DNA from: a virus
Length of the DNA: 64,000 nucleotides
Strand: one strand, 5' to 3'
IMG/VR virus record: IMGVR_UViG_3300045988_112927
Coordinates: 56,519 to 120,518 of that record
The notes under the pieces were generated by a model. It searched no databases and was not told where the DNA came from. It worked only from the letters and a program-made list of their open reading frames with translations. The translations under genes and the position numbers were made by a program. Below are positions 2,979 through 46,774 of this stretch, in pieces (position 1 is the stretch's first letter; every line of letters begins with the position of its first letter).

Positions 2979-3920
2979 TTAGGCAAAGATTGTTCCTAAT
3001 CTGTGGTCAGCTAAACTCTCATCAGCAGAACCGATAATCTGGATAGCTGCAAGTACTTTCTTAGAGCGGTCAAATCTTGTATAATCTGGGAACGCATCCA
3101 TTGTGAAAGTAAATGTTGATGGGTCTCCTGAAGACGCCATAGTGAAAGTGAAGTTAGACTGAATCTTGCAGTTAGGAATGATGAATTCTGCAGGTAAATC
3201 TTTACCATCCTGAGTACGGAATAATGTAGAAGACTCTAAGTAGAAGTTACCACCGAACTTATCTGCTGTGATTTCAATCTGCTGTGCGCCACTCTTGTGC
3301 TCTACATAGTAATCAATAAGAACTGCATCAAACTGATTAGCTGCAGGTAATTTAACAGTAACATCATGCTCACCAGCATTACCGTGAACATCAGTAATAT
3401 TCTGGATACCTACTACGTTCTCTTTATCTTCCCAAGTAGCTTCAGAAAGAATAAATGGCTCAGAAATAATTTCACCATTCTTCATAAACATTGCATAAGC
3501 GTAGTTCTCAGCTTTGTTCTTTGGTAAATATGCTTTATTAGTTAAAGCAACCTTAATTACCCCGTCAGTAGAAGTATCACAGTCAACAACATCAACTGTT
3601 TCTGTAACATGCTGATATACTGGAGTATCATTACCAGCTTCTACTAAACCAGCACCTGAAAGAATCATGAATCCTTCTGGAGAAATAAGAGCATCTTCCA
3701 TAGTGAAGGTTACAGTTCTTTCACCTTCCCATGCAACCAAACGAGAATTACCACGACCACCTTGTGCATATACAGTAGTAGCAGCACCTTCCATGCTAGA
3801 AGTCTTTAAAGTATCGAAATAAATTACAGGCTCGTTAGGGTAGAATGTCTTATTACCAATCTTTTGAGTAGTCTTTGCTTTCAAAACTACGTCGCAAATC
3901 TCACGAACACCAAATTTCAT
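2979..3920 (-). CDS. putative major tail (tube) protein
   Basis: 313 aa, position upstream of chaperone-like genes and TMP, followed by strong terminator (high expression). Confidence 0.35.
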   Translation of the reverse strand: MKFGVREICDVVLKAKTTQKIGNKTFYPNEPVIYFDTLKTSSMEGAATTVYAQGGRGNSRLVAWEGERTVTFTMEDALISPEGFMILSGAGLVEAGNDTPVYQHVTETVDVVDCDTSTDGVIKVALTNKAYLPKNKAENYAYAMFMKNGEIISEPFILSEATWEDKENVVGIQNITDVHGNAGEHDVTVKLPAANQFDAVLIDYYVEHKSGAQQIEITADKFGGNFYLESSTLFRTQDGKDLPAEFIIPNCKIQSNFTFTMASSGDPSTFTFTMDAFPDYTRFDRSKKVLAAIQIIGSADESLADHRLGTIFA

Positions 3921-7987: not shown

Positions 7988-9139
7988 TTATTCCTGGGTA
8001 GGAGCCTGTGCAGGAGTTTCAGTGGTTGTAGTTACGTTAACATTAACAACAGGAGTTGCGTTAACATAAGCAGAACTGTCAAATACAGAACCACGTAAAT
8101 CCATCTGACCAGCTAATGATAAATCACAGTATGCACAAATGTTATTAGCCATCATAGCAACTACTCCAACCTTCTTATAAACCTGAATCTCACGTGAACG
8201 GTCTTTATTCACATATTCATCAACGATTGTATTTCCTTCGAAAGCAATCTTAACTGGCTTACTATCAGCACCTGAAGGAATAATATAGCAGTAACCTGGG
8301 TCAACACATTTCTTTGTGTTAGTTTCATCTTCAAGACCCTGTGGAAGGATAACTACTTTACGTCCCTTGTATGTAGCAAGATGACCAGTATCCCATAACT
8401 GCTGTTTCATAGCTTCAGTATATCTCCATCCCTCAGAAGGAACCATCTTTACTGCGAACTCATAAGTACAGTAAATTGTAGGCTCACCATAAGCAGAAGC
8501 GATAACTAAAAGTCTATCGAACTCAGTCTCATCGAAACCTGCATAAGCTACCAAGTTAGCTGGAGGCAACTGGTTAACAGAAGCCTTAAGTGCATGACCA
8601 ACTTCTTTGAATACCAATTCATCCATACCATCCATGATAATAGCAGTAACCTCAGCGAAGTCTACACGACCATCAAGGAACTCCTCAAATCCAATCTGAG
8701 CAGCGCCACCGATAGCAGATGTACGAACTTCGAAGGTCTCATCTTCGGTAGGACCAAGTTTGAATACTTCGTAAATACCAGCTAATCCAACACGAGTGAT
8801 GAACTGCTTAGCACGACTACGAGTATCTCTCTTACGTCTGAACAAAGGCTTGTCGCCCTGTGCAAATGTTTTAACTTCAGCGAACTGCATGTAAGCTTCA
8901 GTAACTTTCTTAGGAAGAATGTCATCAAGAACTTCTTCAATTACTGCGAAAATTAAGTTCTTGTTCTCTCTGTACAAAGAATATGTACCAGCATATTCAT
9001 TTAATTCTTGACGAAGTGTCTCATTAAGAGCTTCATAGCTGAAACTCTCTCCACCGTAACTGTAAGATACAGGAGCGGAAGGGTCAGCTTTTGCTACAGT
9101 CTTCATTAACTGTACTAAATCGTTTTTATTCAAAGCCAT
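7988..9139 (-). CDS. putative major capsid protein
   Basis: 383 aa; position after portal/scaffold genes; followed by strong terminator. Confidence 0.45.
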   Translation of the reverse strand: MALNKNDLVQLMKTVAKADPSAPVSYSYGGESFSYEALNETLRQELNEYAGTYSLYRENKNLIFAVIEEVLDDILPKKVTEAYMQFAEVKTFAQGDKPLFRRKRDTRSRAKQFITRVGLAGIYEVFKLGPTEDETFEVRTSAIGGAAQIGFEEFLDGRVDFAEVTAIIMDGMDELVFKEVGHALKASVNQLPPANLVAYAGFDETEFDRLLVIASAYGEPTIYCTYEFAVKMVPSEGWRYTEAMKQQLWDTGHLATYKGRKVVILPQGLEDETNTKKCVDPGYCYIIPSGADSKPVKIAFEGNTIVDEYVNKDRSREIQVYKKVGVVAMMANNICAYCDLSLAGQMDLRGSVFDSSAYVNATPVVNVNVTTTTETPAQAPTQE

Positions 9140-9158: not shown

Positions 9159-9920
9159 TTACGCTACACGCATAATTTTAACTGCCTTTTGATGGTCAGC
9201 TAATGTATATACTTTAACAACTTGCCACTGCATAGATGCCTTATCAGCACCAGCCTTAGCTAAGATACCGTCGGTTGCCTGAGGTGTTAATAAATCACCT
9301 ACTGCAAGAGTCTCTTCATTTACACAATTAGTAGTTAAGATGTCACCAACGTTTGTCTTGTAAACACGTGGAACCATTGTAGTACCAGTAGGCATCATCT
9401 TCTCTTTGTAATCATGAAGTCTCTTGAATAATTCTCCACCCTCTTCAGAGTTGATATCACTCATCTCCCAGTAATCTTCAACTTCACTAGCTACTGAGTA
9501 GTCAGGAGTTTCACCTGTTACAGGATTCTTAACTGGATTAGGGTTGTTTGACTGCCAGAAACGAGTAGGACCAAATTCTGATTCCGCTCTATCTGGGTCA
9601 TATGGGCTGTAAACACGAGCACCATAGTTACCTTTTAACATTGCGAATTCGCAATCTAACTGATGCTCTCTATAAAGTTTGGTTTCATTATATACAAGCA
9701 TCCATTCGCCAATTCCTGTAAAGTTAACTAAGCCATTAGCATAGTCATACTTAACGAACTGACCTTGCTCTAAAACGTTAATAGCAGCGTCTGCAGGCAA
9801 CTGAGCGTAAATCTGACCAGTTCTCTGAGCAGATAAGTGATTTGGCTCAACCTGAGCATAACCCATATCTACATACTTAGCCTGAGACTTAATATGCTGT
9901 TTTAAAAACTCTCTAAGCAT
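9159..9920 (-). CDS. hypothetical head protein (decoration or capsid-associated)
   Basis: ORF track 253 aa between scaffold-like gene and capsid candidate. Confidence 0.25.
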   Translation of the reverse strand: MLREFLKQHIKSQAKYVDMGYAQVEPNHLSAQRTGQIYAQLPADAAINVLEQGQFVKYDYANGLVNFTGIGEWMLVYNETKLYREHQLDCEFAMLKGNYGARVYSPYDPDRAESEFGPTRFWQSNNPNPVKNPVTGETPDYSVASEVEDYWEMSDINSEEGGELFKRLHDYKEKMMPTGTTMVPRVYKTNVGDILTTNCVNEETLAVGDLLTPQATDGILAKAGADKASMQWQVVKVYTLADHQKAVKIMRVA

Positions 9921-25697: not shown

Positions 25698-25708
25698 ACG
25701 AGAGTAGC

Positions 25709-25873: not shown

Positions 25874-25902
25874 TTGACAACCTCATACGAAAGTGATATA
25901 AT
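25874..25902 (+). promoter_or_regulatory. sigma70-type promoter
   Basis: TTGACA-17-TGATATAAT. Confidence 0.55.
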
Positions 25903-25936
25903 TAAATCAAGATAAAGGAAAGGAAAGGTAAATAAA

Positions 25937-26092: not shown

Positions 26093-26109
26093 TCCAAACG
26101 TGGTATTAT
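26081..26109 (+). promoter_or_regulatory. sigma70-type promoter
   Basis: GGGTTGACA-17-TATTAT. Confidence 0.5.
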
Positions 26110-26143
26110 AATAATAGAAAGAGGAAAGGAAAGGTACAAAACA

Positions 26144-26599
26144 ATGACAAAGGAAAGAATGATTAAATTATACAGACAGTTCAGCGGAGCAGATAGTTAC
26201 ATCGTAGGTTTTACTTACAAGCACTTATTATACATGATTAAAGTTAAAGAGTTAATGCCAAGACAAATGCAAGTTCTTCACTCTTCACACAAGAATGGTT
26301 ATCAGCCAAAGCTTCAGTTGGTACTTAATAATCACTTAAAAGAACAGTTCATTCGCAAAGGTGCTATTTGCTTAGGTAGTGAAGATTTGATTATGAACGG
26401 CGAATACAACAAGGGTGTTGAGTTTGAAAGACTTGTTTGCGAAATGAATGGTATCGAGTTCAGAGGTAAAGACAGTGTTGGCTTTTGGGTTGGCGGTGAT
26501 GTTGAAATTGAGGGCGAACAGATTCAAGTAAAATTCCAGGGTGCGCAGATTGTAGCAGAAAAAACTTTGGTAAGATTGCAAAAGGGCTTAGTTGGTTAA
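26144..26599 (+). CDS. hypothetical protein
   Basis: ORF track 151 aa. Confidence 0.4.
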   Translation: MTKERMIKLYRQFSGADSYIVGFTYKHLLYMIKVKELMPRQMQVLHSSHKNGYQPKLQLVLNNHLKEQFIRKGAICLGSEDLIMNGEYNKGVEFERLVCEMNGIEFRGKDSVGFWVGGDVEIEGEQIQVKFQGAQIVAEKTLVRLQKGLVG

Positions 26600-26610
26600 G
26601 CCCTTTTAGA
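26583..26610 (+). terminator. intrinsic terminator
   Basis: GGGCTTAGTTGGTTAAGCCC then TTTT. Confidence 0.45.
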
Positions 26611-26622
26611 AAAGAGGTAAAA

Positions 26623-26757
26623 TGTTAAAAGTTGAGCCAATAGCAAACATTAGTTCTTTAGGTTATAAATTGCCGAAAGACCAAAAGAAGAAGAAAAAGA
26701 AAAAAGAAAAGAAAGAAGATTTTGCGGTAGTCTATAAAAAAGTTATTGACAAATAAA
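26623..26757 (+). CDS. small Lys-rich protein (44 aa)
   Basis: MLKVEPIANISSLGYKLPKDQKKKKKKKEKKED... Confidence 0.25.
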
Positions 26758-26774
26758 TAAAAAAATGTTATAAT
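26746..26774 (+). promoter_or_regulatory. sigma70-type promoter
   Basis: TTGACA-17-TGTTATAAT. Confidence 0.5.
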
Positions 26775-26811
26775 ATTTATATAAGATAAAAGAAAGGAAA
26801 GGTAAAACAGT

Positions 26812-26937
26812 ATGACAAAAGTATCCTATGTAGTAACTTATCCAAATAAGACAAAAGAGATTGTTAAAACTCTCGCAGAGGCTCAAGCTGCAAAGCAAAA
26901 GGGCGCAACTTACAAAGTGGTTTACTCTAAACTCTAA
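26812..26937 (+). CDS. small hypothetical protein (41 aa)
   Basis: MTKVSYVVTYPNKTKEIVKTLAEAQAAKQKG... Confidence 0.3.
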   Translation: MTKVSYVVTYPNKTKEIVKTLAEAQAAKQKGATYKVVYSKL

Positions 26938-26973
26938 AGGGGTCGCCCCCTTAAGGGGGCAGAAAGGACGATT

Positions 26974-27270
26974 ATGAAATATTATAGATTTACAGCAGAT
27001 ACACCTTATTGCGGAACTGAAAACACAACTTACATAAAGTTTGAAATAGAACCAACAGAAAGTGAACTTGCAGACATTGCGGCAGACTTAAACGCAAGCA
27101 ACGCAGAATCCTATGAATACATGGTTTTTGGTTGGGACGCCGACCCTGTCGCAGATGGCGAAATGACAGAAGAAGAGTATGAGGAAGAAATGGAATCTTA
27201 CAGAGAAGATTGCACTTGCTTTTATGATGAAGTTTCAGAAGAGGAATATTTTGAAAATGGGGGAGAGTAA
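26974..27270 (+). CDS. hypothetical acidic protein
   Basis: ORF track 98 aa, Glu/Asp-rich. Confidence 0.4.
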   Translation: MKYYRFTADTPYCGTENTTYIKFEIEPTESELADIAADLNASNAESYEYMVFGWDADPVADGEMTEEEYEEEMESYREDCTCFYDEVSEEEYFENGGE

Positions 27271-27327
27271 TCTCTCCCATTTTTAATTTGCGCCGGGCGC
27301 GCACGATTCTCGCGCCCGGTTTTTCGG
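27258..27327 (+). terminator. tandem terminators (GGGGGAGAG..CTCTCCC-TTTTT, then GC-rich hairpin family member)
   Basis: Two consecutive hairpins each followed by T-run. Confidence 0.45.
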
Positions 27328-27376
27328 GATAACCTTTCATTATAACATTTTTTCGGCGAATTGTCAACTGGCAGAT

Positions 27377-27444
27377 TGCACAAAGATTTTCCTGTAATTT
27401 TGTGCAATCTGCCAGTTGTATTTTGGGCGCAGATAGGTTATAAT
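27377..27444 (+). promoter_or_regulatory. class-2 operator/promoter, best palindrome GGCAGATTGCACAA-N15-TTGTGCAATCTGCC
   Basis: 14-bp perfect inverted arms, then GTTGTATTTTGGGCGCAGATAGGTTATAAT. Confidence 0.55.
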
Positions 27445-27515
27445 AATAATGTCAAGAGGGAGTGGGAGCAAACCTTTGGGAACTCTCCTCAACAAAAAAA
27501 AGTTGGAAAAACCTC

Positions 27516-27720
27516 TTGACAAATAAAAAAAATTATGATATAATAAATATAGAAAGTGAGGGAAAAAGAAATACCAAAAAATTTCTAAAAAAAATTAAAA
27601 AAAATGGTTGACAAAATAAAAAAAATATGATATAATAAATATGTAAGATAAAGAAAGAACTTAAAAATCTTTCAAAAAATAAAAAAAGTGCTTGACAAAC
27701 AAAGCACAAGATGTTATAAT
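27516..27720 (+). promoter_or_regulatory. three stacked consensus sigma70 promoters (27516, 27608, 27692)
   Basis: Each TTGACA-17-T(G)ATATAAT/TGTTATAAT with A-tract UP elements. Confidence 0.55.
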
Positions 27721-27800
27721 AAGAATGTAAAGAGGAAAACCTCTTACAGATAAAAAAAATAGGGTTGCGACCAAGCGCAATAAAAGAAAGGATTGATACT

Positions 27801-28157
27801 ATGGAAAACAAGAAGATGACTAAGAGAGAAATGTTTGAGCAGATTAAGGCTACCTATCCGCTGACCGCAGAGGAAGTTGCTTTCATTGACCATGAGCTTG
27901 AGCTTTTGGCAAAGAAGAACTCCGCTGACAAGAAGCCTACCAAGGTACAGGTAGAGAATGAAGCTATCAAGGCTGACATTGTTGGTGGTATGGAAGCTGG
28001 TAAGCAGTACACCATTACTGACCTTATCAAGTCTGTTCCTGCTATCGCAGAGTTGAGCAACCAGAGAGTTTCCGCACTGGTTCGCCAGTTGGTAGCTGAT
28101 GGCTCTGTTGTAAGGGTTGAGGAAAAGCGCAAGGCTTACTTCTCCCTTGCGGAGTAG
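27801..28157 (+). CDS. abundant-early-protein paralog A1 (putative winged-helix DNA-binding)
   Basis: 118 aa; ~80% identical to 32046..32399; elevated GC and G/C-ending codons; ATG 27801 after AAAGAAAGGA. Confidence 0.5.
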   Translation: MENKKMTKREMFEQIKATYPLTAEEVAFIDHELELLAKKNSADKKPTKVQVENEAIKADIVGGMEAGKQYTITDLIKSVPAIAELSNQRVSALVRQLVADGSVVRVEEKRKAYFSLAE

Positions 28158-28163
28158 TCACAA

Positions 28164-28200
28164 GGGGGGCGCAAAGCCCCCCACTACCAAAAAAATTTTT
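28164..28200 (+). terminator. intrinsic terminator
   Basis: GGGGGGCGCAAAGCCCCCC hairpin. Confidence 0.4.
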
Positions 28201-28210
28201 TAGAAAAGTG

Positions 28211-28239
28211 TTGACAAGATAACAAAGGTGTGCTATACT
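28211..28239 (+). promoter_or_regulatory. sigma70-type promoter
   Basis: TTGACA-17-TGCTATACT. Confidence 0.5.
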
Positions 28240-28265
28240 TGTAATAGAAAGGGGGCAGAAAGCCT

Positions 28266-28643
28266 ATGACAAAAACAGAAAGAGAAAAGCTGATTGCCAA
28301 GCACATGGCTACTCTTGATATTACAAGAGAAGAAGCAGAACAGTTGATTGCTGATGATGAAGCCATTGATAAGGGCGCAAAGTTGTTTGAACTTGACAAA
28401 GAAGCGGAAAAGGCAAGCAAAAAGGCAAGAGCCATTGGCACAAAGACCACAACCGCAACCGCCAAGAAGCCAAGAGAGAAAAAGGCTGATAATGACAAAG
28501 CGCAGATTATGGAAGAAATCAGAGAAGCAATTTCCAACCTCAATGGAGTGAGTGACATTGATGTCACAAATGCGGAAAGAGAAATGGTGTTCTTCTGTAA
28601 TGGCAGAAAATTCAAGGTGGTACTGTCTGCGCCAAGAACCTAA
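28266..28643 (+). CDS. abundant-early-protein paralog B1 (Lys-rich linker)
   Basis: 125 aa; paralog of 32451..32816. Confidence 0.45.
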   Translation: MTKTEREKLIAKHMATLDITREEAEQLIADDEAIDKGAKLFELDKEAEKASKKARAIGTKTTTATAKKPREKKADNDKAQIMEEIREAISNLNGVSDIDVTNAEREMVFFCNGRKFKVVLSAPRT

Positions 28644-28660
28644 AGAAAGAAAAAGTCAAG

Positions 28661-28694
28661 GGGGCGAATCTACCAAAGATTCGCCCCTTTTATT
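28661..28694 (+). terminator. intrinsic terminator
   Basis: GGGGCGAATC-TACCAAA-GATTCGCCCC then TTTTATT. Confidence 0.55.
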
Positions 28695-28738
28695 GTGCAA
28701 TTTTACTACTTGACATTTTCAGTTCAAAGTGGTAAAAT

Positions 28739-28775
28739 GGCCGCCCGCGCACATACGCGCGGGCCGGAATTTTTG
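28739..28775 (+). terminator. GC-rich hairpin (family member) preceded by its own TTGACA-17-TAAAAT promoter
   Basis: GGCCGCCCGCGCACATACGCGCGGGCCGG then AATTTTT; promoter at ~28711-28739. Confidence 0.4.
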
Positions 28776-28787
28776 TAAATACCCAAC

Positions 28788-28856
28788 TTGCACAAATTTG
28801 CTGGCGAAAATTTGTGCAAAATTACTACTTGTATTTTTCCCGAAAAGTGATATAAT
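28788..28856 (+). promoter_or_regulatory. class-2 operator/promoter copy
   Basis: TTGCACAAATTTG...AATTTGTGCAAA then CTTGTATTTTTCCCGAAAAGTGATATAAT. Confidence 0.5.
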
Positions 28857-28880
28857 AAATAATGTAAGGAGGGCGATACA

Positions 28881-29051
28881 ATGGACGCTTTTAAGAGAGA
28901 AACAGTAGTTGGTTACACTTGTTATGACATTAACGCAAAATGTGTTCACAATAAACACAGACACAAAGACGGGCAAATGATTAAAAGAACCGCAAGAAGA
29001 AAATTCAAAGAAAAGTTAAAAAAAATGCTTGACAACCAAGAGGAAATGTAG
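28881..29051 (+). CDS. small basic protein (56 aa)
   Basis: MDAFKRETVVGYTCYDINAKCVHNKHRHKDGQ... Confidence 0.35.
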   Translation: MDAFKRETVVGYTCYDINAKCVHNKHRHKDGQMIKRTARRKFKEKLKKMLDNQEEM

Positions 29052-29057
29052 TATAAT
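29029..29057 (+). promoter_or_regulatory. sigma70-type promoter overlapping gene end
   Basis: TTGACA-17-TATAAT. Confidence 0.5.
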
Positions 29058-29090
29058 AAAATCAACAAAAGGAAAGGTTAGGTAATAAAA

Positions 29091-29570
29091 ATGGATTGGA
29101 ATTTATTAGTAGTATTTATCATCTTAAACATTGTAAATGTAGTAATGCAGACAGTAAAGAGTATCGCAACAGTAAAGTGCGGTAAGGGTATAGCCGCCCT
29201 TGTAAATGCGGTAACATTCGCACTCTACACAGTAGTAACAGTTTATATGCTTTGTGAACTTCCTCTACTTTGGAAAGCAGTCATTGTTGGCTTGTGTAAC
29301 CTTGTTGGTGTGTATGTTGTAAAGTTAGTTGAGGAAAAAGCACGCAAAGACAAACTTTGGAAAGTTGAAATGACAGTGCGTGACTATCAGACACAGAAAC
29401 TTGCAAATGCCCTTGATGATTTGAGTATCCCTTATAACTACATAGAAAATGTAGGCAAGTATTCAATCTTCAATATCTATTGTGCAACACAGAAACAGAG
29501 TGCCACAGTAAAAGGCATTGGTGCAGAGTGTAAAGCAAAATACTTTGTAACAGAAACAAAAACTTTATAA
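29091..29570 (+). CDS. membrane protein
   Basis: 159 aa, 3-4 predicted TM helices at N-terminus. Confidence 0.45.
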   Translation: MDWNLLVVFIILNIVNVVMQTVKSIATVKCGKGIAALVNAVTFALYTVVTVYMLCELPLLWKAVIVGLCNLVGVYVVKLVEEKARKDKLWKVEMTVRDYQTQKLANALDDLSIPYNYIENVGKYSIFNIYCATQKQSATVKGIGAECKAKYFVTETKTL

Positions 29571-29577
29571 AAGGGGG

Positions 29578-29606
29578 TTGACAACCCCCACCCCCTATGC
29601 TATAAT
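29578..29606 (+). promoter_or_regulatory. promoter with -35 in hairpin GGGGGTTGACAACCCCC
   Basis: TTGACA-17-TGCTATAAT. Confidence 0.45.
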
Positions 29607-29631
29607 AAGTATAGAAAGAGAGGTAATGACA

Positions 29632-29883
29632 ATGGCAACATTAAAGATTTATAAATGCTATGATGAAAATGGGAAAGAGGACTTAACCCTTGAGGTTTGG
29701 AACTCAAGTACCAAATACCCAGACGCAAAGTTCTACTTTTCAGATTTCAATTTGAGTGAGTGGGTAGACCAGGAGCACCAAGTTTTTCAGTGGTTGCTTG
29801 AATGTGCAAGCAAAATGAGATTTCCAAGCACCGCAAAACAGATTGCGGAATTGGCTTTCAAAGACTATGTAACATGGGAGTAA
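29632..29883 (+). CDS. hypothetical protein
   Basis: Start at ATG 29632 (MATLKIY) 8 nt after AGAGAGG; track start lies in promoter. Confidence 0.4.
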   Translation: MATLKIYKCYDENGKEDLTLEVWNSSTKYPDAKFYFSDFNLSEWVDQEHQVFQWLLECASKMRFPSTAKQIAELAFKDYVTWE

Positions 29884-29888
29884 AAAAT

Positions 29889-29951
29889 GGGCTAGGGAAA
29901 CCTAGCCCTTTCCTTTTGTCTTGGGCTGGCCGCGCTCGGTCACCGCGGCCA
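29889..29951 (+). terminator. tandem terminators (GGGCTAGGG-AAA-CCTAGCCC; GC-rich family hairpin CTGGCCGCG..CGCGGCCAG)
   Basis: Two hairpins with T-rich tails. Confidence 0.45.
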
Positions 29952-30008
29952 GAATTTACCATTATACCACCGGCCGCACTTTTTGTCAAGAAAAACGTGC
30001 GAAAAAAA

Positions 30009-30080
30009 TTGCACAAACTTTTTCCCGAAATTTTGTGCAATTTGTCTATTGTAATTTGCGGCGGGCGGTGGTATACTAAT
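30009..30080 (+). promoter_or_regulatory. class-2 operator/promoter copy
   Basis: TTGCACAAACTTTTTCCCGAAATTTTGTGCAA then CTATTGTAATTTGCGGCGGGCGGTGGTATACT. Confidence 0.5.
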
Positions 30081-30139
30081 TATAGTTGATGAGGGAGAGA
30101 GAAAACCTCATAAAAAAATAAAAAAAGTTGAAAAAACTG

Positions 30140-30168
30140 TTGACAAGTGGCAGACAGTATGCTATAAT
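30140..30168 (+). promoter_or_regulatory. sigma70-type promoter
   Basis: TTGACA-17-TGCTATAAT. Confidence 0.55.
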
Positions 30169-30199
30169 AAAAACAGTTAAAGGAAAGGAACTGAAAGAA

Positions 30200-30931
30200 A
30201 TGAGTAGAAGAAAAGAAATGTTTTTAGTAATTGACACAGAAACTTGCAACACTATTGAGCAACCACTTCCTTATGATATTGGTTATGCAATTTGTGACAG
30301 AAAAGGCAACATTGTTTTGGAAAGAAGTTTTGTTGTTGCTGAAATGTTTTTAGACCACAAAGATGTTATGAAAAGTGCTTATTTTGCTAAAAAAATTCCT
30401 CACTACTGGGATGATTTGAAAAAAGGCACAAGAGAGTTAAAGTCCATTTTCAACATTAGAAAACAGATTTTAGCTGATATGAAACAGTATAAAGTTAAAA
30501 AAGTTGGTGCTTATAATATGGGTTTTGACAAGAGAGCATTAAATAATGTGATTAGATACTGTTCACATTCTTTCATCAGATGGTTTTTCCCTTTTGGTAC
30601 AGAGTTTTTCTGTATTTGGAATATGGCTTGCCAAACACTTTTGAACACTACAACCTATGTAAAATTTGCCCTTGCTAATGGGTTAGAAAGTGACAAGGGA
30701 AACATTCTAACAAGTGCAGAAAGTTGTTACAGATTTCTGACAAATTCAGTTGATTTTGAAGAAAGTCACACAGGTTTGGAAGATGTTAGAATTGAAGTTG
30801 AAATTATGGCAAAATGTTTTGCAACTCATAAAAAAATGAATAAAAGAGTAAATTCTTCTTGTTGGAGATTGCCACAGAGAAAAAGAAAGGAGTTAGACTT
30901 GCGTGAAACATTCCGCACCGCCACAGTATAG
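30200..30931 (+). CDS. DnaQ-like DEDDh 3'-5' exonuclease
   Basis: LVIDTETCN (Exo I), YNMGFDKRAL (Exo II), HTGLEDV (Exo III); start ATG 30200. Confidence 0.6.
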   Translation: MSRRKEMFLVIDTETCNTIEQPLPYDIGYAICDRKGNIVLERSFVVAEMFLDHKDVMKSAYFAKKIPHYWDDLKKGTRELKSIFNIRKQILADMKQYKVKKVGAYNMGFDKRALNNVIRYCSHSFIRWFFPFGTEFFCIWNMACQTLLNTTTYVKFALANGLESDKGNILTSAESCYRFLTNSVDFEESHTGLEDVRIEVEIMAKCFATHKKMNKRVNSSCWRLPQRKRKELDLRETFRTATV

Positions 30932-30975
30932 GCGGAGCGGAAAACCGCACGAACAAAAAATTTTTTCAAAAAAGC

Positions 30976-31005
30976 GTTGACAAATAATTCCAAGAGTGAT
31001 ACAAT
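30976..31005 (+). promoter_or_regulatory. sigma70-type promoter
   Basis: TTGACA-18-TACAAT. Confidence 0.45.
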
Positions 31006-31036
31006 AATTATAGAAAGAGAAAAGGAAGTGATATAA

Positions 31037-31225
31037 ATGGAAGATTACAGTTGTCCTAAATGCGGGAGTGAGGACATTTACACCTTTGATGATAAGGACT
31101 GTGAAATCAACTTTGAAGATGAAACATTTTATGTGAGAAGTGCAATGAGTTGTAATTGTTGCGGGCATGATTTTATAATGGTAGCAAGTGGAAGATTAAC
31201 AGATATTAAGTTTGAAAGGAGATAA
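31037..31225 (+). CDS. zinc-ribbon small protein
   Basis: CPKCGSED...CNCCGHDF. Confidence 0.4.
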   Translation: MEDYSCPKCGSEDIYTFDDKDCEINFEDETFYVRSAMSCNCCGHDFIMVASGRLTDIKFERR

Positions 31226-31228
31226 AAA

Positions 31229-31549
31229 ATGTTTCAGTTTGGCGAAAAAGTGATTATTAAAGACCCCACCTTAAAAAGCCACAATAGAAAAGGGTTGTAT
31301 GTTGGCGAGAGTAAGACCAAGAGCGGACAAGTAAAAGTTTATCTTGAAGAACCTATCAAGAGCGGAAAAAATACCATTGCTTGTGTCACTATTGGGGCGG
31401 ATAAGGTTTTCAACTATGTAGAAGATGAAAAAGAAGCAATGCAGGCTCGCCTTGATTTCCTTTACCGCAGAGCGGATGAACTGGAAACAGAGTTAGTTGA
31501 CGCAAGAGAAGAAATTTTTCAGATTGAGAAAAAGTTAATGGGCAGATAA
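31229..31549 (+). CDS. hypothetical protein
   Basis: ORF track 106 aa. Confidence 0.4.
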   Translation: MFQFGEKVIIKDPTLKSHNRKGLYVGESKTKSGQVKVYLEEPIKSGKNTIACVTIGADKVFNYVEDEKEAMQARLDFLYRRADELETELVDAREEIFQIEKKLMGR

Positions 31550-31600
31550 GTCTGCCCATTATTTGCGCCCAGCGCGCCGCGCACGTACGATGCGCGGCGA
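31541..31600 (+). terminator. tandem terminators (GGGCAGA-TAAGT-CTGCCC; GC-rich family hairpin)
   Basis: Hairpins followed by T-runs. Confidence 0.45.
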
Positions 31601-31659
31601 ATTTTCCATTATACCACCCCGCCGAGATTTTGTCAAGCAAAAGTTGACCGGCAATTTGC

Positions 31660-31736
31660 ACAAAATTTTTCCCAAAATCTTGTGCAGTTTGACAGTTGTA
31701 TTTTTGGGGGAAATGGGTTATAATAAATAATGTCAA
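31660..31736 (+). promoter_or_regulatory. class-2 operator/promoter copy
   Basis: TTGCACAAAATTTTTCCCAAAATCTTGTGCAG then GTTGTATTTTTGGGGGAAATGGGTTATAAT. Confidence 0.5.
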
Positions 31737-31793
31737 AGGGAGATAGGCAATCAGCCTTAAAGAAAAAAAGTTTTAAAAAATTCAAATTCCCTA

Positions 31794-31997
31794 TTGACAA
31801 ATAAAAAAAGTTATGATATAATAAATATGTAAAGAAAAGGAAAGAGTCTTAAATGACAAGTAGGTAAAAGCCTCTGGTTGGAAAATCCTTGCAAGGTAAC
31901 ACAAGCGAAACCCTATTGCAGACAATTTCAGAAGTTTGAAAATCTTCAAAAAAAATTCAAAAAACCTATTGACAACTGAATAAAGATATGTTATAAT
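31794..31997 (+). promoter_or_regulatory. stacked consensus sigma70 promoters (31794 and 31969) upstream of paralog A2
   Basis: TTGACA-17-TGATATAAT and TTGACA-17-TGTTATAAT. Confidence 0.5.
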
Positions 31998-32045
31998 AAC
32001 AATGTAAACAAAAACAAATCACATTTGAAAGGATTGGTACAGATT

Positions 32046-32399
32046 ATGGAAAAGAAAATGACTAAGAGAGAAATGTTTGAACAGATTAAGAGAAACTATG
32101 ACTTAACCCAGGCTGAGGTTGACTTCATTGACCATGAGTTAGAGTTGCTTGCAAAGAAAAATTCTGCTGATAAGAAACCTACTAAGGTTCAGGTGGAAAA
32201 TGAGGGTATTAAGGCTGAAATCCTTGAGGGTATGGAAGTAGGTAAGGCTTACACCATTACTGATTTGATTAAGGAAGTGCCTGCTATTGCTGAATTAAGC
32301 AATCAGAGAGTGTCTGCCCTTGTTAGACAGTTAGTTGCTGATGGTTCAGTAACAAGAACAGAGGAAAAGAGAAAGGCATACTTCACAAAAGTAGCCTAA
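32046..32399 (+). CDS. abundant-early-protein paralog A2
   Basis: MEKKMTKREMFEQIK... ~80% identical to 27801..28157. Confidence 0.5.
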   Translation: MEKKMTKREMFEQIKRNYDLTQAEVDFIDHELELLAKKNSADKKPTKVQVENEGIKAEILEGMEVGKAYTITDLIKEVPAIAELSNQRVSALVRQLVADGSVTRTEEKRKAYFTKVA

Positions 32400-32450
32400 T
32401 CTTGATTGGGTGGGGGAAACCCCACCCCCCACAAAAGGGGGTAGGTAGAA

Positions 32451-32816
32451 TTGACAGATAAAATCAAAAATTTAATGGAAAAGTTAGATATTACAGAGGA
32501 AGAAGCTCTTCAGTTGGTGGAAGATGATAAAGCCATAGATAGGGGCGAAAAACTCTTTGAATTGTCTGATGAACAGAAGAAAAACGCGAAAAAGGCTACA
32601 AATTTGGGAGAAAAGACCAAAAAAACCACTAAAAAAGCCCCAAATCGCAAGAAAAATGACACAAAAGCCACAATTATCAGTGAATTGTCTGAATTTTTGG
32701 CTCAAAATGAGCAAATTGTAGCTGAAAATGTGGAAATTGTCAACGCAGAACGCCAAATTTCCTTCAAAATTGGCGAAAATTCATACAGTTTGACGCTTAC
32801 TCAACACAGGAAGTAG
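32451..32816 (+). CDS. abundant-early-protein paralog B2 (probable TTG start)
   Basis: Aligns with 28266..28643 from N-terminus only if TTG 32451 used; alternative ATG 32475. Confidence 0.4.
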   Translation: MTDKIKNLMEKLDITEEEALQLVEDDKAIDRGEKLFELSDEQKKNAKKATNLGEKTKKTTKKAPNRKKNDTKATIISELSEFLAQNEQIVAENVEIVNAERQISFKIGENSYSLTLTQHRK

Positions 32817-32819
32817 GCA

Positions 32820-32850
32820 AACCGCCCAAAAAGGGCGGTATTTTTTTGTT
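32820..32850 (+). terminator. intrinsic terminator
   Basis: ACCGCCC-AAAAA-GGGCGGT then ATTTTTTTG. Confidence 0.55.
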
Positions 32851-32861
32851 CATTTTTACTA

Positions 32862-32920
32862 TTGACACCCAGCCGCAAATGTGGTATAATTGGCGGCCCG
32901 TTTTCGCTTGCGCTGGGCCG
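32862..32920 (+). promoter_or_regulatory. promoter TTGACA-17-TGGTATAAT reading directly into a GC-rich family hairpin
   Basis: Hairpin CGGCCCGTTTTCGCTTGCGCTGGGCCG immediately downstream of -10. Confidence 0.4.
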
Positions 32921-32941
32921 AACTTCCGTTCTGTATAATTA

Positions 32942-33009
32942 GCACAAAAAATCTCGGCAAAACTTGTGCAAAATTACCTATTGACTATTTTCCCAAAATG
33001 GTGTATACT
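32942..33009 (+). promoter_or_regulatory. class-2 operator/promoter copy
   Basis: GCACAAAAAATCTCGGCAAAACTTGTGCAAA then CCTATTGACTATTTTCCCAAAATGGTGTATACT. Confidence 0.5.
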
Positions 33010-33039
33010 TTAATTACAGTAAAGGAAAGGAATGAGATT

Positions 33040-33261
33040 ATGTTAGAAAAGGTAAAAGATTTCTATGAAAGAGAATACATCAGCACTGAAAGATACTTAA
33101 AAGGTAAATGGTGCGGTGACAAAAGAATGGTTGTAGAAAAAACTATCTCTTACTTTTTAGGCATTGCACAGTTTGTACAGACTATTGGTGTCAAGTATGA
33201 GGACATTGATGTTCTTTACAACATTTACAAAAAAAAGTTACAGAAACTACTTGACAACTAA
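33040..33261 (+). CDS. small hypothetical protein (73 aa)
   Basis: ATG 33040 (MLEKVKDFYEREY); track start 32890 spans regulatory region. Confidence 0.4.
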   Translation: MLEKVKDFYEREYISTERYLKGKWCGDKRMVVEKTISYFLGIAQFVQTIGVKYEDIDVLYNIYKKKLQKLLDN

Positions 33262-33279
33262 ATAAAAAAATGATATAAT
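33251..33279 (+). promoter_or_regulatory. sigma70-type promoter overlapping gene end
   Basis: TTGACA-17-TGATATAAT. Confidence 0.5.
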
Positions 33280-33313
33280 AAATATAACAAAAGGAAAGGA
33301 ATGGTAAAAAATT

Positions 33314-33586
33314 ATGATGAAAATGAGTGAGTTAGCAAATTTGTTAGTAAACGCAATCGCAGAGGTAGGCGATAGAGAGATTGGCTTTGTGGAAGAGGGA
33401 ACTGGCGAGGTTCGCTACTTGGTTGGTCTGTCAATCAGTCAGAGTGATGCAATGCTTGAGCATGTTTCCTATGGAGAAATGCAGATGATTAAACAGTTGG
33501 ATAGGCTGGGTGTTATGATGGATGAAGCTGGAGATGTTTCTCTGCCTGACCTTTTCAATCTTATGGGGGATTTGCTTGATGAATAA
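33314..33586 (+). CDS. hypothetical protein
   Basis: ORF track 90 aa. Confidence 0.4.
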   Translation: MMKMSELANLLVNAIAEVGDREIGFVEEGTGEVRYLVGLSISQSDAMLEHVSYGEMQMIKQLDRLGVMMDEAGDVSLPDLFNLMGDLLDE

Positions 33587-33794
33587 TGAAGATTTGGTTT
33601 TAAGAATGAACATTCTTGGGGGCATGAACTCTTTTGTTCTTGCCCTTGGGGATGAAAATATTTTAGAGGGTTGGATTGTTTATGGTGTTCAAGATGAAGC
33701 CACAGAGGATGATTTGAGAGCCATTGCGGAAGATGATGATTGCTTTGCAGATGTCTGTGAGTATTTCGCAAAAATTTGTAGAAAGAGAGGATAA
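33579..33794 (+). CDS. hypothetical acidic protein (71 aa)
   Basis: ATG 33579 overlapping upstream stop (ATGAATAATG). Confidence 0.35.
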   Translation: MNNEDLVLRMNILGGMNSFVLALGDENILEGWIVYGVQDEATEDDLRAIAEDDDCFADVCEYFAKICRKRG

Positions 33795-33799
33795 AAAAA

Positions 33800-34066
33800 T
33801 TGTTTTATTACATAATAGCTTGTGTGGTAATGGTTGCACTTGTATACATTAAAGTGTATGCGGAAATGGTGGAATTTAAGAAGATTTTCCCCAATTTAAG
33901 GTTCAAAAAGCAAGGTGTAGCAAAAATTTTTATAGACACTGTAAAGGTGCTTGTACTCTTTGCAATTCCAATAATTAATTTGATACTTTTCATTGCTTTG
34001 TTTTTTGTCCTTGATGAAAATGAATACAGAAAAGCAATAATGAAGAATTGTGAAAGCCTCCTCTAA
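33800..34066 (+). CDS. small two-TM membrane protein
   Basis: 88 aa, two hydrophobic helices. Confidence 0.4.
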   Translation: MFYYIIACVVMVALVYIKVYAEMVEFKKIFPNLRFKKQGVAKIFIDTVKVLVLFAIPIINLILFIALFFVLDENEYRKAIMKNCESLL

Positions 34067-34078
34067 TGGGGGCTTTTT
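34050..34078 (+). terminator. intrinsic terminator
   Basis: AGCCTCC-TCTAAT-GGGGGCT then TTTTCC. Confidence 0.4.
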
Positions 34079-34079
34079 C

Positions 34080-34605: not shown

Positions 34606-35058
34606 ATGTATAACTACGATGACATTCTTGCCAGATTGCGCAATGGTGAAGATGCCGAGGTTATTGCCCAGGAGATGGTAGATACTCTGAATAAGGCTAA
34701 CCGCGATTTTACTGATGAAAAGGAGAAGGCTGATAACCAGAAGCAGAAGAAAGTTGACGCCGCAAAGGCTATCTTGGATAGCATGATTGCTTATGTGCGC
34801 GAGTTCCACCCTGAGAATCCTTTGAACGAGGTTCTCGCACAGGCTAACACCGAGAACATGGAGGATTTAGCAAACGCCGTTGATGCAGCAGTTGAGGAGT
34901 TCGGTATACTTACAGCTATTGCTAAGTCTATTGGACCTGACCTTGAGAAGCTGATTAATGTCCGCGAGATTGCGAGACCAAGAGCCGGAGCGATTAGACT
35001 TGCTGCCGGGAATACAAATCCTATTGATGCATTTCTGAAAGCCAACGGATTAGCCTAA
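34606..35058 (+). CDS. hypothetical protein, GC-rich codon usage (highly expressed class)
   Basis: 150 aa; GAG/AAG/GCC/CTG codon bias shared with 27801, 32046 and 46141 genes. Confidence 0.45.
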   Translation: MYNYDDILARLRNGEDAEVIAQEMVDTLNKANRDFTDEKEKADNQKQKKVDAAKAILDSMIAYVREFHPENPLNEVLAQANTENMEDLANAVDAAVEEFGILTAIAKSIGPDLEKLINVREIARPRAGAIRLAAGNTNPIDAFLKANGLA

Positions 35059-46042: not shown

Positions 46043-46071
46043 TTGATTTTTTCAAAAAAAAATGATATAAT
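46043..46071 (+). promoter_or_regulatory. class-3 promoter
   Basis: TTGATTTTTTCAAAAAAAAATGATATAAT. Confidence 0.5.
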
Positions 46072-46140
46072 ATATATGTAAGGTAAAGAAAAAAAGAATT
46101 TCAAAAATCACAAACAAATTAAGAAAGGTGGAACAAAGCT

Positions 46141-46560
46141 ATGACAAACGCAAAGATTACTAAGAAGGACAAATTCAACATGATTAAGGGTATCCTTGAG
46201 GCAGGCACTGTGGAGGGCGTTGATGTTGAGATGCTCACTGAGTTTGTAGAGAATGAGATTGCACTGCTTGAGAAGAAGTCTGCTAAGGCTAAGGAGACCG
46301 CGGCTGCTAAGAAGGCAGAGGCTGATGAACTTACTGTTGCAGTACAGGCTGCTCTTACTGATGAGTATGCTACTATCGCTGAGGTTACTGCGGCTATCGA
46401 GGGTGAGGATGTTACAACTGCTAAGGTTGCATATCGTTTGAACGCTCTTGTTAAGGCTGGTGTAGCTGAAAAGGCTGAGAAGACTATCGCCGGAGGCGAG
46501 GGAGTTAAGAGCCGCAAGGTTCAGTCTTACAGACTCGCTTCTGTAGCTGAAGCTGAGTAA
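46141..46560 (+). CDS. hypothetical Ala/Glu/Lys-rich protein, distant relative of paralog A genes
   Basis: 139 aa; N-terminal KKDKFNMIKG...ENEIALLEKK parallels KREMFEQIK...DHELELLAKK; GC-rich codons. Confidence 0.4.
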   Translation: MTNAKITKKDKFNMIKGILEAGTVEGVDVEMLTEFVENEIALLEKKSAKAKETAAAKKAEADELTVAVQAALTDEYATIAEVTAAIEGEDVTTAKVAYRLNALVKAGVAEKAEKTIAGGEGVKSRKVQSYRLASVAEAE

Positions 46561-46599
46561 TCTACCCCCCAATAAGAGATAAGAAGTAAGGAAGAGGGA

Positions 46600-46635
46600 C
46601 TGGAAATATTCCAGTCCCTCTTTTATTTTTTTAAT
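46600..46635 (+). terminator. intrinsic terminator
   Basis: GGGACTGGAAATATTCCAGTCCC then TCTTTTATTTTTTT. Confidence 0.55.
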
Positions 46636-46774
46636 TGAAAAATCGGAAGGTCTGCTCCGACCGGAGAGGACCCAGGAGACCGAAAAACCAAACTCAAAAT
46701 GTCGTTGGGAAATTTTCATTGACATTATCTAAAAAAAATGGTAAAATATAAATAAAAGAGAAAGGAGAAATCCA

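Follow-up and report, generated by a model that had tools for sequence, protein, structure and literature searches.

A duplicated two-gene module with stacked promoters in the early region of an uncultivated gut phage and the predicted winged-helix protein that it encodes

A two-gene unit, A-B, was characterized in 64,000 nt of phage DNA (IMG/VR record IMGVR_UViG_3300045988_112927, positions 56,519 to 120,518; this whole stretch is referred to as the window). The unit is an old conserved operon, which is present twice, and its first gene encodes a 13-kDa protein with a predicted winged helix that probably belongs to a family so far undescribed. With a little less than even confidence, A is proposed to be an abundant early architectural DNA-binding protein of the nucleoid-associated type, with B as its partner.

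Source and early region

The window was derived from an uncultivated gut siphovirus-type phage of roughly 190 kb. The part from 17.7 to 34.6 kb is a block of small genes, which is early and is transcribed by the host polymerase. Perfect TTGACA-N17-TATAAT sites were found 25 times in the window (0.02 expected), with 24 of the 25 located within 17.7-33.3 kb, and closely stacked perfect sites (less than 200 nt apart) occur in the window only upstream of A genes. Additional candidates for DNA binding near A include RHH, AbrB/MazE-like, and sigma-r4-like genes.

Organization and conservation of the A-B unit

A two-gene duplication had been reported in a preliminary description made from the sequence alone, and it was confirmed: A1 and B1 correspond to A2 and B2, and the same four ORFs are called in near-identical public contigs. 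The duplicated unit is larger than two genes, as positions 27268..28700 are colinear with 31548..32860. Both copies are arranged in the order GC hairpin, operator, class-2 promoter, consensus promoters, A, hairpin, B, and terminator. The features of the two modules are given below; the cassette alignment consisted of 9 cassette copies.

27281..27324, no strand: GC-rich hairpin opening the class-2 cassette of module 1 (repeat family D14; alignment of 9 copies)
27339..27367, minus: leftward perfect consensus promoter of module 1, between hairpin and operator (RNA fold z-score -4.2)
27376..27407, no strand: operator palindrome of module 1, TTGCACAAA-N13-TTTGTGCAA (repeat families D9-D11; cassette alignment)
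27416..27444, plus: class-2 promoter TTGTAT-17-TATAAT of module 1, directly 3' of the operator (read from the sequence; conserved in the cassette alignment)
27516..27544, 27608..27636, and 27692..27720, plus: stack of three perfect TTGACA-17-TATAAT promoters; every one carries a TG extended -10 and has an A-tract upstream
27801..28157, plus: A1, 118 aa, predicted N-terminal helical hairpin and winged helix
28154..28187, plus: GC-rich hairpin between A1 and B1 (fold -20.8 kcal/mol, z-score -3.4; no adjacent U-run)
28211..28239, plus: B1's own promoter, TTGACA-17-TATACT
28266..28643, plus: B1, 125 aa; the N-terminus is acidic and helical, the middle is disordered and K/T-rich, and the C-terminal domain is small (alpha plus three strands)
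28654..28700, plus: intrinsic terminator of module 1 (fold -23.7 kcal/mol, z-score -5.6, followed by UUUUAUU)
31561..31604, no strand: GC-rich hairpin of the module 2 cassette (repeat family D14; cassette alignment)
31608..31636, minus: leftward perfect consensus promoter of module 2 (RNA fold z-score -5.9)
31656..31686, no strand: operator palindrome of module 2 (operator search and cassette alignment)
31696..31724, plus: class-2 promoter TTGTAT-17-TATAAT of module 2 (read from the sequence; cassette alignment)
31794..31822 and 31969..31997, plus: two perfect consensus promoters upstream of A2
32046..32399, plus: A2, 117-aa paralog of A1
32409..32440, plus: GC-rich hairpin between A2 and B2 (RNA fold)
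32451..32816, plus: B2, 121-aa paralog of B1, TTG start
32821..32850, plus: intrinsic terminator of module 2 (sequence and RNA fold)

The A copies, for which about 80% identity had been estimated, were 86% identical as proteins and 74% identical as coding DNA. The B copies were more divergent, as previously stated, and shared 41% identity. Synonymous sites between A1 and A2 were saturated (dS 2.1), and the dN/dS of 0.07 points to purifying selection. Among 25 diverged relatives, B was always located after A wherever enough sequence was available, two modules were usually present, and the B1-type and B2-type genes were each orthologous across genomes. One relative (L005) carries three A genes inside 5 kb, and the window likewise contains three genes of the A superfamily. 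The hairpins 3' of the A genes are GC-rich, and true terminators follow the B genes; the hairpin at 28154..28187 is possibly a 3' stabiliser or a partial terminator.

Predicted structure and family of A and B

The AlphaFold2 model of A (pLDDT 86.9) comprises a helical hairpin followed by a helix-turn-helix and a beta-wing. Helices were predicted at residues 48-63, 72-78, and 87-100 and strands at 103-108 and 111-116, with a pLDDT of about 90 in these segments, giving the three-helix bundle, recognition helix, and subsequent beta-hairpin wing of the winged helix-turn-helix superfamily. A C-terminal winged helix had been suggested from the sequence, and both the model and the fold matches to ArsR, MarR, and TubR-type proteins argue for it. 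The Foldseek matches (CadC, SqrR, TubR, MarR, and MecI) were weak and generic, with a best E value of 3e-3 against the PDB. The most conserved parts of A are the recognition helix (SNQRVSALVRQ) and the wing (EEKRKAYF).

No family match was obtained for A in Pfam, NCBIfam, or PHROG, and the best Pfam scores were below threshold (Mnd1, 17-19 bits with a cut-off of 23.5; MarR_2, 13-15 with 27; TrmB, 14 with 25.6). Assignment of A to MarR, ArsR, TrmB, or HxlR at the Pfam level was rejected, as all scores fell below the gathering thresholds and no NCBIfam model matched. A MarR-family protein was also rejected on the basis of the AlphaFold2 model, in which the chain ends 2-3 residues past the wing and has no C-terminal helix. 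An HU/TF1 type II protein was rejected because there was no Bac_DNA_binding match in Pfam and the predicted fold is a winged helix. A tblastn search of A against 50,697 phage records returned one unannotated faecal contig and no cultured phage. The A family contains 5497 clusters at 90% identity and 2519 at 50% identity; the best 120 of the 5497 clusters were 78-98% identical to A1. The winged-helix unit of A is also present in large proteins, repeated 2-4 times in tandem at the C-terminal end, and one of these proteins carries a HIRAN DNA-binding domain as well.

The model of B was of moderate confidence (pLDDT 73.7) and had no structural match, and a tblastn search of B against the same phage records returned nothing.

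Promoters and operator cassettes

Four to five stacked promoters had been described for each A gene. The stacking was recovered and the count was lower, with four promoters for A1 (three perfect and one operator-linked) and three for A2 (two and one). The A-tract UP elements that had been proposed were seen as A-rich tracts upstream of each -35 hexamer (repeat family D1). The triple promoter stack of A1 recurs in L005 at -253/-162/-75, and relatives in which A is only 45-65% identical have 1-3 promoters at about -75, -160 to -200, and -250 to -300. A promoter at about -54 is kept for B1-type genes in relatives; B2 lacks a promoter of its own. The leftward promoter at 27339..27367 would yield an RNA of ~70 nt with two hairpins. 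It is conserved in L005 and L017, where it also lies upstream of A, and in L022 and L023, where it is found next to operators.

The operator TGCACAAA-N14-TTTGTGCA had 9 matches on both strands compared to 0.02 expected. Its arms are invariant and show no compensatory changes, as expected of a protein-binding site. The preliminary description had A binding to this operator, and by extension A could be a sequence-specific transcription factor that acts through the operator to repress or activate the class-2 promoters and that is autoregulated by way of the cassette preceding each of its genes. The predicted winged-helix fold is consistent with such a function. So are the class-2 cassettes that precede both A genes as well as A in L005 and L017, and the labels 'predicted transcriptional regulator' or 'HxlR family' that source pipelines attached to homologs. 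However, L008 and L010 have a near-identical recognition helix (TNQRVSALVRQ / TNQRVSSLVRQ) and no operator palindrome in 10-12 kb, and L017 has the operator and a different helix (SNQYASSQVRAL). Binding of A to the TGCACAA operator is therefore not favoured. Stacked consensus promoters, expression-type codons, and at least three paralogs are also atypical of a low-copy regulator, and other candidates for DNA binding (the RHH, AbrB/MazE-like, and sigma-r4-like genes) are encoded nearby. The transcription factor reading is considered rather unlikely, and a low-copy sequence-specific regulator is less likely than an architectural role.

Codon usage

Two genes outside the modules shared the codon bias and were included in the analysis:

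34606..35058, plus: acidic 150-aa protein of no known family, unrelated to A, with two upstream promoters
46043..46071, plus: promoter of the third A paralog, TTGATT-17-TATAAT
46141..46560 (46043..46560 with promoter), plus: remote third paralog of A, 139 aa (hhalign 96.8%, E 2.4e-10, 106 columns)

Both modules and these two genes had been described as higher in GC and in G/C-ending codons than the rest of the phage. The effect differed among the genes: A1, 34606..35058, and 46141..46560 showed it strongly, A2 and B1 showed it moderately, and B2 had background-like codon usage and did not show it (GC3 of 0.52 for A1, 0.39 for A2, 0.42 for B1, and 0.36 for B2, with a background of 0.31). The biased genes favour AAG, GAG, and CAG and C-ending pyrimidine codons, yet they use GCT, GTT, and GGT, so that the pattern is not an overall GC shift; the GCC preference that had been listed did not hold, as A1 has zero GCC codons. 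The strongest bias was that of A1 (AAG 14/14, CAG 5/5, and no TTA or ATA), and 46141..46560 uses AAG in 16/17 and GAG in 16/19 cases. A1, A2, 46141..46560, and 34606..35058 outranked all 41 other genes tested, with codon adaptation judged within the phage alone. By the same preferences (AAG/GAG/CAG, C-ending NNY, and TTA/ATA avoidance), the A-type genes come first. The presumptive capsid, scaffold, and virion genes are close behind, with the capsid genes assigned by position and partial annotation only; the presumptive capsid genes share the preferences more weakly. This ranking bears out the earlier view that the bias marks high expression, and the codon pattern fits selection for expression. 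In relatives, GC3 of A exceeded the locus background in 27/28 cases (mean +0.17), use of G-ending K/E/Q codons in A was higher by 0.345, and the stacked promoters of A were kept. The bias was a property of A, not B, across relatives.

The phage encodes tRNAs for Lys-CTT, Glu-CTC (two), Leu-CAA, Thr-GGT, and others. These decode exactly the favoured codons, and tuning to the phage's own tRNAs is thus an alternative to the host-like usage that had been assumed.

GC3 could also be raised irrespective of expression if the genes had recently been acquired from another phage or from a host of higher GC, or if conversion between paralogs were GC-biased. A1 has the highest GC3 among the real genes of the early block, and A copies are more alike within a genome (68-85%) than orthologs are between genomes (46-67%), which suggests past conversion. 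Ongoing conversion is contradicted by the dS between A1 and A2, and the bias is kept in nearly all A genes of relatives across lineages that are saturated at synonymous sites. The absence of a uniform GC rise and the rank of the presumptive capsid and virion genes after the A-type genes also speak against this origin. In a GTDB-based scan, no bacterial genome contained a close copy (maximum 69% amino-acid identity), and every A match was on a MAG contig of mixed taxonomy. Recent horizontal acquisition, seen as nucleotide-level matches to host DNA, had been named as one observation that would overturn the expression reading; these values and the dS and dN/dS between A1 and A2 speak against it. 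Recent transfer or conversion is largely refuted and is regarded as highly improbable.

Proposed role of A and B

The consensus promoters, which stand in tandem and have A-tracts, suggest that A would be made in very large amounts early in infection, as do a 5' stem-loop carried by the A1 leader, the post-stop hairpin, and the expression-type codon bias. The recognition helix and wing would most likely contact DNA, the N-terminal helical hairpin may mediate self-association, and A may coat or organise phage or host DNA early in infection. B would be made from A's transcripts at a lower level, and the position of hairpins after A and of true terminators after B is taken as a signal of this stoichiometry. 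Its two small folded domains are separated by a disordered, lysine-rich segment, and B probably works together with A. Having two modules and a third paralog probably serves dosage, staged expression, or both. The histone-like or takeover role suggested earlier for A is likewise conjectural.

Counting against a DNA coat, both proteins are electrically neutral (pI 6.6-7.8), with a net charge of -1 in the winged-helix domain of A, which is unusual for a non-specific DNA coat. H-NS and phi29 p6 are likewise acidic. Winged helices also act as protein-binding modules, and A and B might instead be host-takeover or anti-defence effectors directed at host proteins (RNA polymerase, nucleoid proteins, or immune sensors), with the winged helix as a protein-binding scaffold and a high dosage that titrates an abundant target. 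The neutral or acidic overall charge is in line with this, the very high degree to which A is conserved would be expected if its host target were conserved, and the dense early block of small genes with consensus promoters resembles the SPO1 host-takeover module. On the other side, the top-conserved residues are in the recognition helix and wing, which are the usual DNA-contacting elements, the A-type unit is reused in tandem beside the HIRAN domain, and no model in the Pfam, NCBIfam, and PHROG libraries matched. Effectors of this kind are judged improbable. A broader form of the architectural reading is possible, if doubtful: A, the paralog 46141..46560, and B would form a phage chromatin-like system based on an undescribed winged-helix family, shared across a very large clade of ~190-kb phages, uncultivated and from gut and rumen. 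The system would reach near-structural levels within minutes of infection and would coat, compact, or shield DNA, with codons tuned to the phage tRNAs (Lys-CUU, Glu-CUC, and Leu-CAA), not to the host.

Comparison with known systems

Phi29 p6 and SPO1 TF1 are small, very abundant proteins that are expressed from strong promoters and that coat phage DNA or bend it; the fold of TF1 is that of HU, and p6, which is acidic overall, has a separate fold. A would resemble them in abundance and DNA coating, both of which are conjectural for A, and its winged-helix domain is acidic, as is p6. A differs from both in its predicted winged helix, the lack of any sequence relationship found, an obligatory partner B, and two or three paralogs. 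Rok and H-NS have an N-terminal helical domain, a basic linker, and a C-terminal DNA-binding domain, which is a winged helix in Rok. The model of A suggests the same modular domain plan, whereas A has no detectable homology to these proteins, is much shorter (118 aa), and is encoded in the early region of a lytic-type phage, not in a cellular chromosome.

The folds that best matched the C-terminal 70 residues of A were those of MarR, ArsR-SmtB, and TubR proteins. However, A has neither the combined N- and C-terminal dimerisation helices that MarR has nor the metal sites that ArsR has, a TubZ-like partner was not observed, and the Pfam scores of A were under every gathering threshold.

In the host-takeover module of the Bacillus phage SPO1 (genes 37-60; Stewart et al. 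1998, cited in PMC6873191), small early genes are densely packed and are transcribed by the host polymerase, and every gene has a ribosome-binding site and a strong sigma-A consensus promoter. Its products target RNAP, HU, and ClpCP (PMC8208478, PMC8892312, PMC6873191). The block in the window is similar in its small early genes and in the clustering of 24 perfect sites, whereas the tblastn searches of A and B against the 50,697 phage records showed no homology to gp37-gp60. To our knowledge, the class-2 operator cassettes and the duplicated A-B operon have no SPO1 counterpart. SPO1 Gp27 consists of a self-associating helical N-terminus, a lysine-rich disordered DNA-binding middle, and a small folded C-terminal domain (PMC13401047). 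B resembles this plan in its predicted three parts, and differs in that its disordered stretch is about 18-30 residues compared to 70 in Gp27 and that its C-terminal domain is alpha plus three strands, whereas that of Gp27 is two helices.

Genomic context and the early block

The window forms part of a large phage of low GC content (~35%), and a 190,353-bp metagenomic contig encodes proteins identical to those of the window. Structural genes on the minus strand fill 1-17.7 kb; ORF 2979..3920 matches annotated virion structural proteins, and the terminase shares ~50% identity with its counterparts in Enterococcus Schiekvirus-like phages and Geobacillus E3 and 44% with that of the gut phage phAss-1. 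The phAss-1 paper held no relevant host or promoter information, searching the literature for a jumbo phage of Phascolarctobacterium yielded no papers, and a megablast comparison of the 5.8-kb region with 50,697 phage records returned zero matches. An Rfam scan of the window recovered tRNAs only, and 17 tRNA genes lie at 50.6-63.7 kb.

Small ORFs are densely packed on the plus strand between 17.7 and 34.6 kb. Perfect TTGACA-N17-TATAAT sites occur 25 times in the window against 0.02 expected; all except one fall within this early block (24/25), and nearly all have a TG-extended -10 and lie downstream of an A-rich tract. The layout of the block is similar to that of the SPO1 host-takeover module (Stewart et al. 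1998, cited in PMC6873191).

Organization of the duplicated module

The four ORFs proposed in the preliminary description as a duplicated gene pair are real and have the coordinates given there; independent gene calls on near-identical public contigs agree on them and on their order, with products of 118, 125, 117, and 121 aa. The A proteins are 86% identical (74% in coding DNA) and the B proteins 41%. The duplication was thus borne out, but the repeated unit extends beyond the two genes, from the regulatory cassette to the terminator. The segments 27268..28700 and 31548..32860 are colinear in element order: GC-rich hairpin, leftward promoter, operator palindrome, class-2 promoter, consensus promoters, A, hairpin, B, and terminator.

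Genes and promoters of the two modules
27416..27444, class-2 promoter (TTGTAT-17-TATAAT beside the palindrome) of A1
27516, perfect consensus promoter of A1
27608, perfect consensus promoter of A1
27692, perfect consensus promoter of A1
27801..28157, A1
28266..28643, B1
31696..31724, class-2 promoter of A2
31794, perfect consensus promoter of A2
31969, perfect consensus promoter of A2
32046..32399, A2
32451..32816, B2

Promoter stacking was confirmed, but at four promoters for A1 and three for A2 instead of the four to five first counted. Among the genes of the early block, perfect sites less than 200 nt apart are confined to the A genes. B1 has its own promoter (TTGACA-17-TATACT), and B2 has none. 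RNA folding placed a stem-loop at the start of the A1 leader, GC-rich hairpins without a U-run after A1 and A2, and a true terminator after each B gene, an arrangement that fits differential expression.

A 130-aa version of A1 from a TTG start was rejected because the ATG at 27801 has an AAAGGA site that is also present in A2. Three minus-strand ORFs (27854..28132, 28184..28615, and 46108..46725) have high GC3 and many Ser-AGC and Leu-CTC codons, which read as GCT and GAG on the opposite strand; these were discarded as shadows of the conserved sense genes A1, B1, and 46141..46560. Approximately 110 nt of non-promoter sequence (31840-31950) separates the two consensus promoters of A2 and has no counterpart upstream of A1.

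Codon usage and phage tRNAs

The codon shift noted earlier for these genes is real, but it is uneven among them and is not a plain increase in GC. GC3 is 0.52 for A1, 0.42 for B1, 0.39 for A2, and 0.36 for B2, compared with ~0.31 for other ORFs. A1 uses AAG for 14/14 lysines and CAG for 5/5 glutamines, prefers GAC, AAC, ACC, and TAC, favours GCT, GTT, and GGT, and has zero TTA, ATA, or GCC codons. When 45 window genes were ranked by G-ending Lys, Glu, and Gln (K/E/Q) codons, the top four were 46141..46560 (0.89), 34606..35058 (0.86), A1 (0.82), and A2 (0.63), followed by 33314..33586 (0.60), a small gene of the early block. Next came 9159..9920 and 7988..9139, by position the presumptive scaffold and capsid genes, together with the virion protein match 2979..3920. 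Translational selection on expression level would produce such a gradient, which supports the earlier proposal that these genes are highly expressed. Synonymous differences between A1 and A2 are directional (25 G/C-ending in A1, 9 in A2), with a dS of 2.1 and a dN/dS of 0.07.

The phage tRNAs (50618-63698) include Lys(CTT), two Glu(CTC), Leu(CAA), Leu(TAG), Thr(GGT), two Asn(GTT), and Asp(GTC). They decode G- or C-ending codons that are rare genome-wide and dominant in the codon-biased set (A1, 34606..35058, and 46141..46560), so tuning to phage-borne tRNAs is an alternative to host-like usage. The coincidence with tRNAs for G-ending codons makes it possible to test whether the phage tRNAs are tied to these particular phage genes.

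In six consecutive genes at 55121-61864, GC3 is very low (0.13-0.17), and G- and C-ending codons are scarcer than anywhere else in the window. These genes include weak radical-SAM and 4Fe-4S matches and form a compositional class unlike the rest of the phage.

Distribution and evolution in relatives

The A family comprises 5497 clusters at 90% identity, and an exhaustive search gave 2519 at 50% identity. The best 120 of the 5497 are 78-98% identical to A1 and lie on contigs of up to 199 kb, a degree of conservation unusual for an early phage gene, which makes A a useful clade marker and a good first target for biochemistry. No homolog of A or B was found in a cultured phage among 50,697 phage records, and cluster names for ten A-family representatives were uninformative. 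In a scan of species-representative genomes, A matched only MAG contigs (top identity 69%), which were assigned implausibly to a mixture of taxa (Treponema, Clostridia, Bacteroidales, Bacilli, and Elusimicrobia) and originate from samples of human, yak, sheep, buffalo, and rumen; these matches are binned phage contigs rather than host genes.

Gene arrangement was compared across 32 loci using HMM searches. B lies directly 3' of A at every locus with enough sequence, and most of the longer loci carry two modules 3-4 kb apart, with a third A in L005. Each B type, B1 and B2, remains orthologous from genome to genome in conserved order, and the two are only 28-39% identical within a genome. Identity among A copies is 68-85% within a genome versus 46-67% between orthologs (L005, L008, L017, L022, L023, L030, and the window). 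Together these patterns indicate that the module duplication is old and that concerted evolution has acted on A only.

In the relatives, too, A is consistently preceded by stacked near-consensus promoters. GC3 of A exceeded the local background in 27/28 cases (mean +0.17), and its use of G-ending K/E/Q codons was higher by 0.345; B differed by just +0.045 in GC3 and showed no K/E/Q difference. As the loci share ancestry, the p-values of these comparisons serve only as a guide. Recent horizontal acquisition, which the preliminary description had named as a competing cause of the codon shift, was looked for and fails to explain it, given the bias kept in 27 of 28 A genes of relatives, the dS of 2.1, and the genome-scan identity of at most 69%. 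Horizontal transfer or biased gene conversion is a very improbable source of the shift and is largely excluded.

Predicted structures and proposed role

The predicted structure of A (pLDDT 86.9) begins with an N-terminal hairpin of two helices (residues 8-42), which a short basic segment (KKNSADKKPT) separates from a winged helix (48-116), in agreement with the winged helix suggested earlier. Foldseek searches returned generic winged-helix matches in the PDB (CadC, SqrR, TubR, MarR, and MecI; E 3e-3 or weaker) and only uncharacterised metagenomic siphovirus proteins in BFVD. None of A, B, 34606..35058, and 46141..46560 scored above threshold in Pfam, NCBIfam, or PHROG scans, and profile searches of A and of B against PDB sequences found no match. 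Conservation is highest in the KKPT..Q..N cap, the recognition helix SNQRVSALVRQ, and the wing EEKRKAYF, a pattern that fits a DNA-binding module.

HMM positions 43-118 of A recur as two to four tandem units of ~75 aa, including the KPT..Q..N cap, at the C-termini of large proteins of 460-1394 aa (P0241, P0263, P0289, P0325, and P0273), one with a HIRAN domain and one with Sel1 repeats. Such reuse indicates an autonomous, probably nucleic-acid-binding module; an artefact of fused ORFs was rejected, as these are continuous proteins. Gene 46141..46560, which has its own promoter and terminator, is a remote A paralog with the same plan (hhalign probability 96.8%, E 2.4e-10, 106 columns), which places two of the four co-biased gene sets in one superfamily. 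Gene 34606..35058 is unrelated to A.

In the model of B (pLDDT 73.7), the N-terminus is helical and acidic, the middle is disordered and K/T-rich with a net charge of +7 to +9, and one helix and three strands make up a small domain. No structural (Foldseek against PDB) or sequence match was found for B. Both proteins are near neutral overall (pI 6.6-7.8).

Promoter stacking, strong purifying selection, the existence of several paralogs, and an expression-type codon bias exceeding that of the capsid genes suggest that the demand for A is stoichiometric, not that for a catalyst or regulator. Given a winged helix whose recognition helix and wing are conserved, the favoured reading is that A would serve as an abundant architectural DNA-binding protein, and B would be a lower-abundance partner adding a lysine-rich DNA-contacting segment; this reading is held tentatively, at a little under an even chance. 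High expression is likely, DNA binding is probable, and the architectural role is the weakest step; the functional label is offered as a hypothesis. That A and B instead form a takeover or anti-defence effector directed at a host protein agrees with their genomic neighbourhood and neutral charge but matches the conservation pattern less well, and is considered quite unlikely.

Functional analogues of an architectural A are phi29 p6, SPO1 TF1, and the Rok/H-NS plan, none of which is a homolog. The plan of B is analogous, without homology, to that of SPO1 Gp27, which has an N-terminal domain, a lysine-rich disordered region, and a C-terminal domain (PMC13401047). The A family is undescribed, but its probable kind is familiar: a strongly expressed small early DNA-binding protein of a phage takeover-type early region.

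The preliminary description was substantially correct, apart from the promoter count and an even codon shift, and its proposals of high expression and a winged helix are supported. Should A prove to be what it seems, it would rank with the most abundant early proteins in a widespread, uncultivated group of large gut phages, from a family of >2500 clusters at 50% identity without a name, solved structure, or assigned function. The A-B locus is also a clean natural case of phage expression tuning, in which stacked promoters, hairpins that set the A:B ratio, biased codons, and the dosage of paralogs appear to be combined.

Regulatory cassette and other promoters

Early transcription units are delimited by a cassette of ~130 nt repeated over 19560-34200. 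It comprises a GC-rich hairpin, the palindrome TGCACAAA-N14-TTTGTGCA, and a TTGTAT-17-TATAAT promoter with the conserved spacer TTTATCCCGAAATGGGG. Variants in the palindrome arms are uncompensated, so the palindrome has the appearance of a putative protein-binding site, not an RNA stem.

Cassette copies and associated promoters
near 19632, cassette
near 20698, cassette
near 22104, cassette
near 24057, cassette
near 25713, cassette
near 27377, cassette
near 28789, cassette
near 30010, cassette
near 31657, cassette
~32945, cassette
near 34150, cassette
27339..27367, minus strand, perfect consensus promoter inserted in a cassette
29961..29989, minus strand, perfect consensus promoter inserted in a cassette
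31608..31636, minus strand, perfect consensus promoter inserted in a cassette
34536, third promoter type, upstream of 34606..35058
37064, third promoter type, upstream of the block from 37.2 kb
46043, third promoter type, upstream of 46141..46560

The cassette was found in relatives L005, L017, L022, and L023 and is missing from others. Binding of this operator by A as a regulator is unlikely: L008 and L010 have a near-identical recognition helix but lack the palindrome, and in L017 the palindrome occurs alongside a different helix.

At least three copies of a third promoter type, TTGATT-17-TGATATAATAT with an A-rich spacer, are present. The three inserted leftward promoters face into the GC hairpin, and their predicted transcripts of ~70 nt fold into a GC hairpin at the 5' end and, at the 3' end, a second hairpin with a U-run (z-scores -4.2 to -5.9). 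Such transcripts are candidate small RNAs and would be complementary to the end of the upstream gene (3', antisense). In L005 and L017 the insertion is likewise kept upstream of A, and in L022 and L023 it is kept next to operators.
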